A stretch of 64,000 nucleotides of DNA, from assembly GCF_055900595.2 (NCBI RefSeq), contig NZ_CM148325.1; one strand, written 5' to 3'. Position 1 is the stretch's first letter. Every line of letters starts with the position of its first letter. The notes under the pieces were generated by a model. The model had not been told where the DNA came from, did no database searches, and was given only the letters and a program-made list of their open reading frames with translations. Below are positions 2,989 to 46,053 of this stretch, piece by piece. The position numbers and the translations under genes are program-made.

Positions 2989-3900
2989 GTGAGTACATTA
3001 GAACAAACAATAGGCAATACGCCTCTGGTGAAATTACAACGAATGGGGCCGGATAACGGCAGTGAAGTGTGGTTAAAGCTGGAAGGCAATAATCCGGCCG
3101 GTTCGGTGAAAGATCGTGCGGCGCTTTCGATGATCGTCGAGGCGGAAAAGCGCGGGGAAATTAAACCGGGTGATGTGTTAATCGAAGCCACCAGTGGTAA
3201 CACCGGGATTGCGCTGGCAATGATCGCTGCGCTAAAAGGCTATCGCATGAAATTGCTGATGCCCGATAACATGAGCCAGGAGCGTCGCGCGGCGATGCGT
3301 GCCTACGGTGCGGAGCTGATTCTGGTCACCAAAGAGCAGGGCATGGAAGGTGCGCGCGATCTGGCGCTGGAGATGGCGAATCGTGGCGAAGGCAAGCTGC
3401 TCGATCAGTTTAATAATCCCGATAATCCTTATGCGCATTACACCACCACCGGGCCGGAAATCTGGCAGCAAACCGGCGGTCGCATTACCCATTTTGTCTC
3501 CAGCATGGGGACGACCGGTACGATTACCGGCGTGTCGCGCTTTATGCGCGAGCAATCCAAACCGGTGGCGATTGTTGGTCTGCAGCCGGAAGAGGGCAGC
3601 AGCATTCCCGGCATTCGTCGCTGGCCTGAGGAATATCTGCCAGGCATCTTCAACGCTTCGCTGGTGGATGAGGTGCTGGATATTCATCAGCGTGATGCGG
3701 AAAACACCATGCGCGAACTGGCAGTGCGGGAAGGGATTTTCTGCGGTGTAAGTTCCGGTGGCGCGGTTGCCGGAGCACTGCGGGTGGCAAAAGCCAACCC
3801 CGGCGCTGTAGTGGTGGCGATCATCTGCGATCGCGGCGATCGCTACCTTTCTACCGGGGTGTTTGGGGAAGAGCACTTTAGTCAGGGGGCGGGGATTTAA
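2989..3900 (+). CDS. cysM: Cysteine synthase B (O-acetylserine sulfhydrylase B), GTG start
   Basis: 303 aa; PLP-dependent cysteine synthase fold with lysine motif ...GSVKDRAA...; operon position after cysA. Confidence 0.95.
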   Translation: MSTLEQTIGNTPLVKLQRMGPDNGSEVWLKLEGNNPAGSVKDRAALSMIVEAEKRGEIKPGDVLIEATSGNTGIALAMIAALKGYRMKLLMPDNMSQERRAAMRAYGAELILVTKEQGMEGARDLALEMANRGEGKLLDQFNNPDNPYAHYTTTGPEIWQQTGGRITHFVSSMGTTGTITGVSRFMREQSKPVAIVGLQPEEGSSIPGIRRWPEEYLPGIFNASLVDEVLDIHQRDAENTMRELAVREGIFCGVSSGGAVAGALRVAKANPGAVVVAIICDRGDRYLSTGVFGEEHFSQGAGI

Positions 3901-42674: not shown

Positions 42675-43050
42675 GGGTGACTCTGAATAAGGATTAAACC
42701 TCTATGATAGGTAACCTGAAGGCCGATGACCAGCAGGCCGTTTTTGAGGAAAGACCACAACTTTAAAAGGGGATTGAAAGTTAAATGGTGTATTAGCAAT
42801 GCATCTCTTGATAATGCATATCTGTTTGGTAAATTTATTGAAATTATAATGTTAATAGATTGGGTGGTAATTTTCTTGTTAGCGTAGATAAATTTCCTGT
42901 TTTTAAAGCGGAGTTCCTCATTTAAGGCTATTAACAAAAATGTTCTAAAACGCTGGACAGACAGAAATTAATCAGGCTATTTTCAAAACAGCCACCATCG
43001 TGGCAGCGTCGCTCGGACGGTCCGGGCGCTCACGTTAATCTGAGGAAATT

Positions 43051-44289
43051 ATGGCTGACACTCGCCCTGAACGTCGCTTTACGCGTATTGATCGTCTCCC
43101 ACCCTACGTTTTTAACATTACCGCTGAACTGAAAATGGCTGCGCGTCGGCGCGGCGAAGATATTATCGATTTCAGTATGGGTAACCCGGACGGTGCGACC
43201 CCGCCGCATATCGTCGAAAAATTATGTACGGTGGCCCAGCGACCGGACACGCATGGTTATTCCACCTCGCGTGGTATTCCGCGGTTACGTCGCGCCATTT
43301 CCCGCTGGTATCAGGATCGTTACGACGTCGAGATCGACCCGGAATCAGAGGCTATCGTCACCATTGGCTCGAAAGAGGGGCTGGCGCATCTGATGCTGGC
43401 GACGCTGGATCACGGTGACACTGTACTGGTGCCTAATCCAAGCTACCCGATTCATATTTACGGCGCGGTGATTGCCGGGGCGCAGGTACGCTCAGTGCCG
43501 CTGGTGGACGGTGTCGATTTCTTCAACGAACTGGAACGCGCCATTCGCGAAAGTTATCCGAAACCGAAGATGATGATCCTCGGCTTTCCCTCGAACCCAA
43601 CCGCGCAATGCGTGGAACTGGAATTCTTTGAGAAGGTTGTAGCGCTGGCGAAACGCTACGATGTGCTGGTGGTCCATGACCTGGCCTATGCCGATATCGT
43701 CTACGATGGCTGGAAAGCGCCGTCAATCATGCAGGTGCCAGGTGCACGCGATGTGGCGGTCGAGTTCTTTACGCTGTCGAAAAGCTACAACATGGCGGGC
43801 TGGCGTATCGGCTTTATGGTCGGTAACAAAACGCTGGTCAGCGCGTTGGCACGTATTAAAAGCTATCACGATTACGGCACCTTTACGCCGTTGCAGGTGG
43901 CGGCGATTGCGGCACTGGAGGGCGATCAACAGTGCGTTCGCGACATTGCCGAACAGTACAAACGCCGCCGTGATGTACTGGTTAAAGGGCTGCATGAAGC
44001 GGGCTGGATGGTCGAAATGCCGAAGGCTTCGATGTATGTCTGGGCGAAAATCCCGGAACCATATGCGGCCATGGGCTCACTGGAATTTGCCAAGAAACTG
44101 CTTAACGAAGCGAAGGTCTGTGTCTCTCCAGGGATTGGCTTTGGCGACTACGGCGACACCCATGTTCGCTTTGCGCTGATTGAAAACCGCGATCGTATTC
44201 GCCAGGCGATTCGTGGAATTAAAGCGATGTTCCGTGCCGACGGTTTACTACCCGCCAGCAGCAAACATATTCACGAAAACGCGGAATAA
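43051..44289 (+). CDS. alaC: Glutamate-pyruvate aminotransferase AlaC (YfdZ)
   Basis: 412 aa class-I aminotransferase with PLP-lysine context ([12 protein letters not shown]). Confidence 0.95.
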
Positions 44290-44309
44290 ACACCATCGCC
44301 AGAAATGCA

Positions 44310-44336
44310 AACAGGAGCCAGATGGCTCCTGTTTTT
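44310..44336 (+). terminator. Rho-independent terminator of alaC
   Basis: 10-bp stem aacaggagcc/ggctcctgtt, loop agat, followed by TTT. Confidence 0.5.
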
Positions 44337-44353
44337 CATTGCACAGTTTGCTT

Positions 44354-44425
44354 TTAGATCATCAGGGCAAAAGTACCGGCCCAAACGATGACCATAAAAG
44401 AAATGCCCATAAAGAAATATTTCAC
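44354..44425 (-). CDS. ypdK: Small membrane protein YpdK (23 aa, GTG start)
   Basis: Minus strand reads GTG-AAA-TAT... translating to MKYFFMGISFMVIVWAGTFALMI with GGAGAG about 8 nt upstream; too short for the ORF track. Confidence 0.55.
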   Translation of the reverse strand: MKYFFMGISFMVIVWAGTFALMI

Positions 44426-44712
44426 TTTACATCTCTCCGCGTAATTACTGTTACGCCTGAATGACTTCATTACACCTGATACAGTGAGTTGACACCGGGC
44501 AAAACGACATTGAAAGTCCGTATTTTACCGTGGGCATCACCCCAGAATTCTGAGCTAAACTGCTCCAGACGGCGCTAATGTACGCCTAAAACTGAAACGA
44601 GACAAGAGGCATTTTCTTATTTACTTTTAGTAACTTACAGGTGTCTCATATCGGCGACAGTTTAATTTCTGACGGTAATAATTAGAGATTCAGCGAAGGA
44701 AAAAACCTTAAG

Positions 44713-44747
44713 AAAAAAGCCATAAAAACCATGAGGTTATTATGGCT
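44713..44747 (-). terminator. Candidate rho-independent terminator of lpxP
   Basis: On minus strand: stem agccata/tatggct followed by TTTTTT, about 35 nt 3' of lpxP stop. Confidence 0.45.
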
Positions 44748-44779
44748 GATTTGAGGAGGGAAAGAGTAAGAGCAATTTG

Positions 44780-45700
44780 TTAAATGTATAACGACGATTC
44801 TCCCACCGGGCGCGTTTTAAAGCGACGGTGGATCCAGAGGTACTGCTCAGGTGCGCGCATAATCTCTTTCTCGATAATCTTGTTCATATAGGCAGCGGCT
44901 TGATTTTCATCTGCCGGGTAGCCTTCCATTTCAGGGGTGATGAACAACCGATATCCGCTGTAATCCGCTTTTCTGACCATCGTTACGGTCAACATGGCTG
45001 CGCCAGAGAGACGAGAGAGGACATAGGTGCCATTGGTTGTGGCAACATTTTCTACCGCAAAGAACGGTGCGAAGGAGCTGCCTTTACGACCATAATCCTG
45101 ATCGGGAGCAAACCATACGGCTTCACCTTTCTTCAGCGCACCGACAATACCGCGCAGATTATTTCTGCCGATCATCGCTTTGTTAGAGCGCATGCGACCA
45201 CGGGTCTGCACCCATTCCATCAGCTGATTATTATGCGGACGATAGGTGGCCATCATTGGCTGACATAGTCCCATCACGCGGCCGCCCAATTCCAGCGACA
45301 TAAAATGGACGCCGACAACCATCACGCCACGATTTTGCAGTTGTGCGCGTTTGAGGTTATCCAGCCCTTCAACATCAAACCATTTACGTACGCGACTGTC
45401 GGGCCAGAACCATGCCATGCCGGTTTCTACCAGCGCCATGCCGAGTGAACGAAAGTTTTCGGCAATCATCTTCTCGCGCTCTTCAGCAGAATGCTGTGGG
45501 AAACAAAGTTCCAGGTTCTTACGGGCGATAGATTCACGACGTTTCAGGAATGGTCGCGCCATCGTGCCGATACGCGTGCCGAGAAAACAGAGAACAGGGT
45601 AAGGAAGCTGTACCCAAAGCCAGAGTACACCAAGCCCAAACCATGTGAGCCAGTAGCGAGGATGTAGAAACTCGCGGGAAAATTTGCATTTTGGAAACAT
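44780..45700 (-). CDS. lpxP: Lipid A palmitoleoyl-ACP acyltransferase LpxP (cold-induced LpxL paralog; start trimmed to MFPKCKF)
   Basis: 306 aa from trimmed start; LpxL/HtrB-family lauroyl/palmitoleoyl acyltransferase sequence. Confidence 0.9.
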   Translation of the reverse strand: MFPKCKFSREFLHPRYWLTWFGLGVLWLWVQLPYPVLCFLGTRIGTMARPFLKRRESIARKNLELCFPQHSAEEREKMIAENFRSLGMALVETGMAWFWPDSRVRKWFDVEGLDNLKRAQLQNRGVMVVGVHFMSLELGGRVMGLCQPMMATYRPHNNQLMEWVQTRGRMRSNKAMIGRNNLRGIVGALKKGEAVWFAPDQDYGRKGSSFAPFFAVENVATTNGTYVLSRLSGAAMLTVTMVRKADYSGYRLFITPEMEGYPADENQAAAYMNKIIEKEIMRAPEQYLWIHRRFKTRPVGESSLYI

Positions 45701-46053
45701 AGTTACCTTCTGTAGATACGAATTGTTGTATCGCAGAAGATTCCATGTCGACAGCGGTACACTCAATTGGTTGGGCCATCATGTACGACAATGGTTCCTG
45801 TAAAGAGTGTAAAGACTAGTCAGGACATAACCACGAGGAGCATGAATGCGGTGCTTTTACTTTATCACTGGCTGACTGCTTTCAGCTACTGATTATTTAT
45901 CGTGCAAAGTAAATATTTTTTTCGCACATTACAGTCTTGCATTTAACGTGCTGTTTTCATTAATACTTAGCAAAAATTGCCAGAGGTTAAGGATTGTCTT
46001 ACTATTAAAGTGACTGAAGTTACAGGTTTTTTAGCGCGGCAGGAGGTTGAGCT

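Follow-up and report, generated by a model that had tools for sequence, protein, structure and literature searches.

Small single-pass inner-membrane proteins, among them AcrZ, MgtS, CydX and KdpF, act as a class by binding a larger membrane protein. Several such small membrane proteins are listed beside YpdK in one screen (PMC10470546), and ypdK itself is counted as one of 18 new small membrane proteins in the work of Hemm et al. (2008), as cited in PMC3009722. The locus described here lies in a 64,000-nt stretch of contig NZ_CM148325.1 (assembly GCF_055900595.2), hereafter called the window. Its minus strand at positions 44354-44425 reads GTG AAA TAT TTC TTT ATG GGC ATT TCT TTT ATG GTC ATC GTT TGG GCC GGT ACT TTT GCC CTG ATG ATC TAA, which translates as V(=fMet)KYFFMGISFMVIVWAGTFALMI*, that is, 23 codons from a GTG start to a TAA stop with the product (f)MKYFFMGISFMVIVWAGTFALMI.

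The first-pass annotation, made from the letters alone, had called this open reading frame ypdK, and the name proved to be correct. In the best-match genome, RefSeq places "membrane protein YpdK" (WP_010723117.1) on the minus strand at 3155-3226 of the locus, corresponding exactly to 44354-44425 of the window; the K-12 MG1655 counterpart is b4680 (2496921-2496992), located between b2378 and b2379; and the NCBIfam equivalog model NF033437 "YpdK" matches with 57.5 bits (E 9.4e-16, cut-off 30 bits) over its full length, residues 1-23 falling on profile positions 1-23 of 23. Since RefSeq annotates it at the same coordinates and the NF033437 match exceeds the cut-off, the feature is ypdK, a gene already known and annotated. 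Its coding DNA in the window is identical to that of K-12; the two differ by a small number of substitutions in the leader and by a 1-nt indel, and not at all in the YpdK protein. At least 1000 contigs carry the identical 23-aa sequence under the name YpdK, and the 600 bases around ypdK were found in 5422 of the 5426 complete E. coli genomes, at a median of one place per genome. The RefSeq annotation beneath the E. coli matches is alaC, ypdK and lpxP, and the stretch covering the Shine-Dalgarno (SD) sequence and the ORF is ≥99% identical in 4769 of 5423 E. coli records.

The further claim that ypdK had been missed by the ORF track holds for the mechanical ORF list and fails for the genome annotation. 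At the default threshold of 60 aa the ypdK frame is unlisted, and at a threshold of 20 aa it appears as a 38-aa ATG ORF (44354-44470) and not as the 23-codon GTG ORF, while RefSeq carries the gene; there is no new gene here, because it is only the length-thresholded list, and not the annotation, that lacks it. A total of 43 ORFs of at least 20 aa overlap positions 43000-46000, so that within these surrounding 3 kb a 23-codon ORF taken alone would be insignificant by chance, and it is the conservation of the ORF across species that carries the coding case beyond chance. Overall, we put at roughly 85% the probability that ypdK is a genuine monocistronic gene, transcribed on its own, whose 23-residue product consists of little more than a single transmembrane (TM) helix.

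For comparison across taxa, we sampled 80 loci around AlaC relatives, taking one genome per species. A YpdK-like ORF is present in 75 of these 80 alaC-linked loci, in Enterobacteriaceae, Erwiniaceae and Serratia; it is absent from four (Erwinia endophytica, Lonsdalea, Symbiopectobacterium, and a record titled Pseudomonas resinovorans), and one locus is truncated where its contig stops. The 75 ORF-bearing loci, together with the window and locus L001, make up the 77 sequences discussed below. Their constant neighbor is the convergent alaC, with 42-153 nt separating ypdK codon 23 from the alaC stop in 72 of the 77. The E. coli order, in which ypdK lies downstream of lpxP and is convergent with alaC, is far from general: lpxP is found upstream in only 19/77 sequences, and elsewhere the place is taken by unrelated genes, often divergent, at a distance of 200-630 nt. 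Because the upstream neighbor varies, ypdK must own a promoter; it is a stand-alone monocistronic transcription unit, tied only to the alaC terminator.

The block upstream of the gene is conserved whatever the neighbor may be, and consists of CTTGT(C/T/A)N, 17-18 nt, and TACATT within the nearly invariant GTACATTAGCGCC. An element of the form TA[C/A/G/T]ATT was found in 74 of 76 loci, and in 58 of those 74 it is accompanied by TTG 17-18 nt away. In the window, this corresponds to a putative sigma-70-type promoter on the minus strand at 44577-44605, with the -35 hexamer TTGTCT (44605-44600), a 17-nt spacer, and the -10 hexamer TACATT (44582-44577), directly followed by a GC-rich discriminator, AGCGCC (44571-44576). 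Upstream of the -35 hexamer, at 44611-44631, there is an A/T-rich block, ACTAAAAGTAAATAAGAAAAT, conserved in position and A/T-rich across genera, which is possibly an UP element. The predicted +1 is the G at 44570, about 145 nt upstream of the start codon, which would give a 5′ UTR extending over 44426-44570; the predicted 5′ UTR has a median length of 145 nt across loci. A published tiling-array transcript with boundaries of low resolution (2494795-2494997 in old K-12 coordinates, where ypdK begins at 2494943; log2 +1.06 after UV) starts 148 nt upstream of the K-12 GTG, in agreement with the predicted promoter. A consensus promoter scan did not flag this promoter, as only 8 of the 12 hexamer positions in E. 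coli agree with the consensus.

A second -10-like element, CTCTATACT, is located at about -60 and conserved in other genera, and could act as an alternative promoter. As a candidate for the main promoter it was ranked second, being degenerate in E. coli (CACTGTATC) and missing in taxa with short leaders, with the tiling-array transcript starting at -148. The upstream inverted repeat TGTCG-N-CGACA was compared by eye with LexA, CRP and CpxR sites and set aside, as its spacing and half-sites do not fit.

At the other end of the transcription unit, a bidirectional intrinsic terminator at 44309-44334 serves ypdK on the minus strand and alaC on the plus strand. Its stem, AAACAGGAGCC/GGCTCCTGTTT, closes a 4-nt loop, ATCT, with a ΔG of -21.3 (minus strand) or -20.7 kcal/mol (plus strand) and a z-score of about -4.4, and in other taxa hairpins of different sequence occupy the same place. 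The Term-seq 3′ end at K-12 position 2497040 (+), assigned to the class "primary ypdK", falls at about 44306 of the window, and with a start about 145 nt upstream of the GTG it sets the length of the ypdK RNA at ~265 nt. A consensus terminator scan missed this real terminator, which has the tail TTTGCATTTC, and pointed to a site within the ORF (44394-44377) that resembles a terminator and was discounted. In the sequence of events that we propose, transcription would begin at the conserved promoter ~145 nt upstream and produce the ~265-nt RNA, which ends at the hairpin common to ypdK and alaC.

The predicted leader is probably folded. In an alignment of 32 leaders from Enterobacteriaceae, RNAalifold returned a long-range helix (P2) as well as a hairpin immediately ahead of the SD sequence, with compensatory changes in 8 of the 16 predicted pairs. 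On the minus strand of the window, P2 extends over 44486-44543 (44543-44532 pairing with 44497-44486) and has an apex that is variable or deleted in some strains, while the SD hairpin occupies 44439-44456 (GCGTAA at 44456-44451, a 6-nt loop, and TTACGC at 44444-44439) and abuts the SD sequence; a 5′-proximal stem-loop, SL1, is located at 44550-44568 (CTGGAGC, loop AGTTTA, GCTCAG). Over the three helices, 88.2% of cells are paired, compared with no more than 47% after sliding of the 3′ partners. Changes on both sides are seen in 65 cells versus 31 in shuffles, and the covariation score is 0.348 versus 0.227 in shuffles, with 0 of 500 shuffles reaching 65 and 0 of 500 reaching 0.348. Taken individually, P2 is 92.5% paired with 4 of 10 pairs changed on both sides, the SD hairpin is 94.2% paired with 4 of 6 pairs so changed (GC/AU, CG/UA), and SL1 is 75% paired with 4 of 6, despite misalignment. 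SL1 forms a hairpin of at least 5 bp in 68 of 71 distinct sequences, but its per-sequence thermodynamics are weak (median z -0.85). The stems of the SD hairpin differ across taxa (GCGTAC/GTACGC, GCATAC/GTATGC, GCACAC/GTGTGC, GCGCG/CGCGC). The P2 apex has undergone a natural 36-nt deletion in another E. coli and is also deleted in Pseudocitrobacter, with the base of the helix retained in these cases. A candidate outer stem around the SD sequence, TTCAT:ATGAA, is 79% paired and displays no compensatory change. The leader with its three helices would probably set mRNA stability and ribosome access.

We also considered whether the leader might serve specifically as a sensor, for example as a thermometer or by binding a ligand or a protein, or whether the ypdK RNA might have a dual function, either of which would be compatible with a monocistronic gene for a membrane peptide. 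The helices covary; the SD-adjacent hairpin is kept in Klebsiella sp. BIGb0407, where the rest of the leader is lost and only 67 nt remain; the spacer between the SD sequence and the GTG, GATGAAAC, hardly varies, and there is a conserved palindrome, CAGAATTCTG. A scan of 43800-45000 on both strands against Rfam gave no match at the gathering score, and the matches with E up to 1, to the plastid psbJ 3′ UTR (24.3 versus 65.6 bits) and to a snoRNA (20.4 versus 48), are at chance level. However, we identified no conserved single-stranded seed and no junction resembling a ligand pocket, the candidate outer stem enclosing the SD sequence lacks covariation, and some taxa do without the middle part of the leader, all of which makes a sensor or a dual role unlikely. 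The broader suggestion, which we find somewhat easier to entertain and still advance only tentatively, is that an undescribed conserved cis-regulatory leader and an rrn-P1-like promoter may couple YpdK synthesis to growth state or to a signal, or else that the locus yields a ~265-nt dual-function RNA. The conserved promoter and the folded leader are the only possibly new element at this locus, and they appear to be undescribed.

The encoded product, at 23 aa and with a GRAVY of 1.73, is almost wholly one hydrophobic helix, as the first-pass annotation had described it, and TMHMM assigns a TM segment from F4 to L21 (Table S1 in PMC10470546). K2 is the sole charged residue, and the protein is virtually devoid of an extramembrane tail. 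In the RseP screen, plasmid-expressed HA-MBP-YpdK was not cleaved, i.e., it is not an RseP substrate (PMC10470546); Table S1 records cleavage only, and so the screen is silent on toxicity. YpdK would be expected to insert into the inner membrane, where, by analogy with better-described proteins of this size, it would bind a larger membrane protein within the bilayer and modulate or stabilize that protein, a proposal to which we give even odds. Specific intramembrane binding is the likeliest role because ten fixed residues across three families exceed what membrane anchoring needs. A PDB sequence search with E up to 10 found no chain matching YpdK, which is therefore not a subunit in any solved complex; a Pfam scan gave no match for it, no partner was found in the literature searched, and no conserved operon partner is seen among the 77 sequences, in which the upstream neighbor varies.

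Could YpdK instead be a membrane-damaging peptide of the type I toxin kind, with translation blocked by the structured 5′ UTR and a divergent RNA acting as the control? It is very hydrophobic and 23 aa long, its SD sequence is flanked by structure, and a conserved promoter-like site on the plus strand (44654-44682) points away from the gene from ~120 nt upstream. In E. coli, the 5′ end of tpke70 lies just downstream of this site, at about 44695 on the plus strand by our estimate. EcoCyc lists tpke70 as an sRNA candidate in the lpxP-ypdK region, and the current K-12 record of RefSeq has no entry for it. A layout with a divergent RNA is reminiscent of tisB/istR-1, shoB/ohsC and zor/orz. However, tpke70 lies on the strand opposite to ypdK and runs antisense into lpxP, overlapping neither ypdK nor its predicted leader, and hence the divergent transcript does not overlap the predicted ypdK RNA. 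Moreover, ypdK is single-copy, at a median of one place per genome, and is highly conserved in fixed synteny across three families, whereas type I toxins have a patchy distribution and are often multi-copy. Because ypdK is single-copy, syntenic and broadly conserved, we regard a toxin-like role as improbable.

The claim of a 23-codon GTG-initiated ORF and its peptide on the minus strand is borne out by the sequence itself and by the comparison, in which the start codon is GTG in 77/77 sequences. The ORF has 23 codons in 56 of the 77 and 24 codons in the other 21, the additional residue being E, K or A. The 77 sequences comprise 68 distinct nucleotide versions and 39 peptides, for which the mean entropy at codon positions 1, 2 and 3 is 0.58, 0.18 and 1.13, respectively. 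For the 68 distinct versions the pooled pN/pS of the ypdK frame is 0.27, and in the other scorable frames it ranges from 0.45 to 2.5. Invariant or nearly invariant residues are M1, K2 (66/68), Y3, M6, G7, S9, W15 (66/68), G17, T18 and F19, and the peptide from the window conforms to the resulting motif of 23-24 aa, (M)KY-x2-MG-x-S-x5-W-x-GTF-x-LM-x. A large survey of intergenic small ORFs has likewise reported YpdK clusters in Citrobacter, Kosakonia, Erwinia, Pantoea, Escherichia and Yersinia. Judged by its substitution pattern, ypdK is a real protein-coding gene.

These data leave very little room for a non-coding RNA at this locus, in which the conservation would be that of RNA structure and the ORF would have no functional translated peptide. 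The length and the conserved structure of the transcript leader, the sRNA-like size of ~265 nt, and the earlier call of the sRNA candidate tpke70 in the same intergenic region all speak in its favor, but three-base periodicity and a pN/pS of 0.27 are unexpected for a purely structural RNA, as are the invariant GTG with its SD sequence, the fixed ORF length and the conserved amino-acid identities. The two Rfam matches are at chance level, and a tagged form of YpdK was reportedly detected by Hemm and colleagues.

The position of the start codon deserves separate consideration. The SD sequence GGAGAG is located on the minus strand at 44433-44438, 7 nt before the GTG, in line with the initial description of the start site; GGAG is found 6-10 nt ahead of the GTG in 76/77 loci, and is invariant in two alignments (A1 and A3). 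Codons 3, 4 and 7, on both sides of the internal Met6, vary synonymously, and therefore the constraint begins at the GTG and not at Met6. On the upstream side, the frame in the window remains open as far as an ATG at 44470, and a number of E. coli and Shigella records carry a 38-aa protein beginning with MKSFRRNSNYAERCKVKYFF, labelled "hypothetical" or "putative membrane protein". We consider it most improbable that this longer form is the true product, since the ATG at codon -15 is present only in the two E. coli sequences, has no SD sequence before it and lies inside the conserved leader, and in the 38-aa form the match to the NCBIfam model is confined to residues 17-38. In 30 of 76 loci the frame is closed by a TGA two codons ahead of the GTG, so that no longer form can be conserved, and the in-frame extension (44426-44470, minus strand) does not belong to the gene. 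The comparative data thus settle the start at the GTG, against a 38-aa mis-annotation that persists in some records.

The TTG-initiated 94-aa ORF on the plus strand (44180-44464) is the longest across the interval and lies in the exact antisense register of ypdK, yet the chance that it is the real gene and ypdK its antisense shadow is close to nil, because it is interrupted by stops within the overlap in 41 of the 77 sequences (Salmonella and Citrobacter among them), and, moreover, its frame has a pN/pS of about 1.8, it begins inside alaC, takes in the 3′ end of that gene and continues across the terminator hairpin, its Pfam scan gave one weak match below threshold and none that is significant, and RefSeq has no gene on the plus strand at this place in either the best-match genome or K-12, so that the initial verdict of a probably spurious ORF can be upheld.

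The existence of the gene is thus not new, and in the literature accessible to us YpdK is among the E. coli small membrane proteins without an assigned function. As the example shows, 23-codon genes that length-thresholded ORF lists miss or provide with a wrong start can be recovered by reading the sequence alone. The comparative work adds that ypdK is autonomous, being tied to the alaC terminator only, and its conserved promoter and structured leader offer handles for finding when YpdK is made.

Comparison with known systems can be made at the level of the promoter, the locus layout and the protein. The K-12 rrnB P1 promoter (verified sequence) consists of CTCTTGTCA, 16 nt, TATAAT and GCGCC, and shares with the predicted ypdK promoter the -35 context CTCTTGTC(A/T), an A/T-rich block upstream, and a GC-rich GCGCC after the -10 hexamer. 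The ypdK promoter thus combines the rrn P1-like traits of a GC-rich discriminator, a sub-optimal -35 and spacer, and an A/T-rich block; it differs in having a spacer of 17-18 nt instead of 16, TACATT in place of TATAAT, and an extra A before GCGCC, and its likeness to the stringently controlled rrnB P1 is to be read as a resemblance only. With TisB, ShoB, Ibs and ZorO, YpdK has in common a small hydrophobic peptide, a long structured leader, an SD sequence beside a helix, and a divergent RNA nearby, but it differs from them in being single-copy, syntenic and conserved across families, with no overlapping antisense RNA identified. With AcrZ, MgtS, MgrB, CydX/CydH, KdpF and PmrR it shares a length of ≤50 aa and one hydrophobic helix, and, like other proteins of the AcrZ type, it is missed by gene finders that apply a length threshold. 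Unlike them, it carries its sole charge at K2, has virtually no extramembrane tail, and has no candidate partner in an operon, since the upstream neighbor varies; the comparison with this group is one of analogy, and not of family membership. The closest described counterpart is K-12 YpdK, which is in effect the same gene, located in the same position between lpxP and alaC and identical in its coding DNA.

Whichever gene lies upstream, ypdK keeps a putative promoter of its own and a structured leader of about 145 nt, the helices of which covary (window 44426-44631, minus strand, for promoter and leader together); a scan of this region against Rfam gave nothing above chance. Directly after the first stem-loop, the leader carries a palindrome, TCAGAATTCTG(A/G) (44541-44552, minus strand), seen as CAGAATTCTGAGG across many genera, and it could be either a protein-binding site or a component of the RNA fold. 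Further downstream on the same strand, at about 44478-44486, there is a -10-like element, CTCTATACT/CTCTATAAT, which in other genera is located approximately at position -60 relative to the GTG and is kept in many of them, the E. coli version (CACTGTATC) being degenerate. It resembles a -10 hexamer with a C upstream, a preference of sigma-S, and may represent a second promoter or else the single-stranded 3′ flank of the leader helix P2 (44543-44532 paired with 44497-44486).

Leader length is polymorphic even within E. coli: in comparison with window 44498-44533, another E. coli locus, L002, displays a 36-nt indel, with the apical part of P2 deleted and its base retained. The Pseudocitrobacter leader has a similar deletion, and this apical region also distinguishes K-12 from the window, through several substitutions and an indel of 1 nt. 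The spacer between the Shine-Dalgarno sequence and the GTG (44426-44432; columns 156-164 of the leader alignment A3) is non-coding yet nearly invariant, reading GATGAAAC in most genera and GATGTAAA in E. coli. In most genera it includes an in-frame TGA, which blocks any upstream extension of the ypdK frame; the loss of this TGA in E. coli gives rise to a misleading 38-aa ORF.

On the downstream side, ypdK is usually separated from alaC by about 50 nt, as opposed to 217-1625 nt in five of the alaC-linked comparison loci, namely L069, L076 and L080 (Serratia), L042 (Buttiauxella brennerae) and L041 (Entomohabitans), indicating that DNA was inserted between the two genes. On the upstream side, the block at window 44641-44695, which is retained also in genera without lpxP, includes inverted repeats of the form (C)TGTCGCCGAT..GACAC(C). 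In this block, a promoter-like site on the plus strand (GCGACA, 17 nt, AATAAT; 44654-44682) is directed away from ypdK, and its position agrees with the 5′ end of tpke70, an sRNA candidate that extends into lpxP in antisense orientation. The mechanical ORF list gives lpxP a TTG start and 328 aa (44780-45766, minus strand), and RefSeq starts it 22 codons downstream, at ATG 45700 (306 aa, MFPKCKF...).

Directly past the lpxP stop codon, at about 44700-44779 on the minus strand, there is an lpxP terminator made up of the hairpin GCCATAA...TTATGGC and a stretch of T residues after it, and a published Term-seq 3′ end (K-12 2496632) coincides with it. Transcription of lpxP therefore mostly ends ahead of the ypdK promoter. 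This putative promoter consists of a -35 hexamer TTGTCT (44605-44600), a -10 hexamer TACATT (44582-44577) and the discriminator AGCGCC, with an A/T-rich block upstream of the hexamers, all on the minus strand, and is similar in sequence to rrnB P1.
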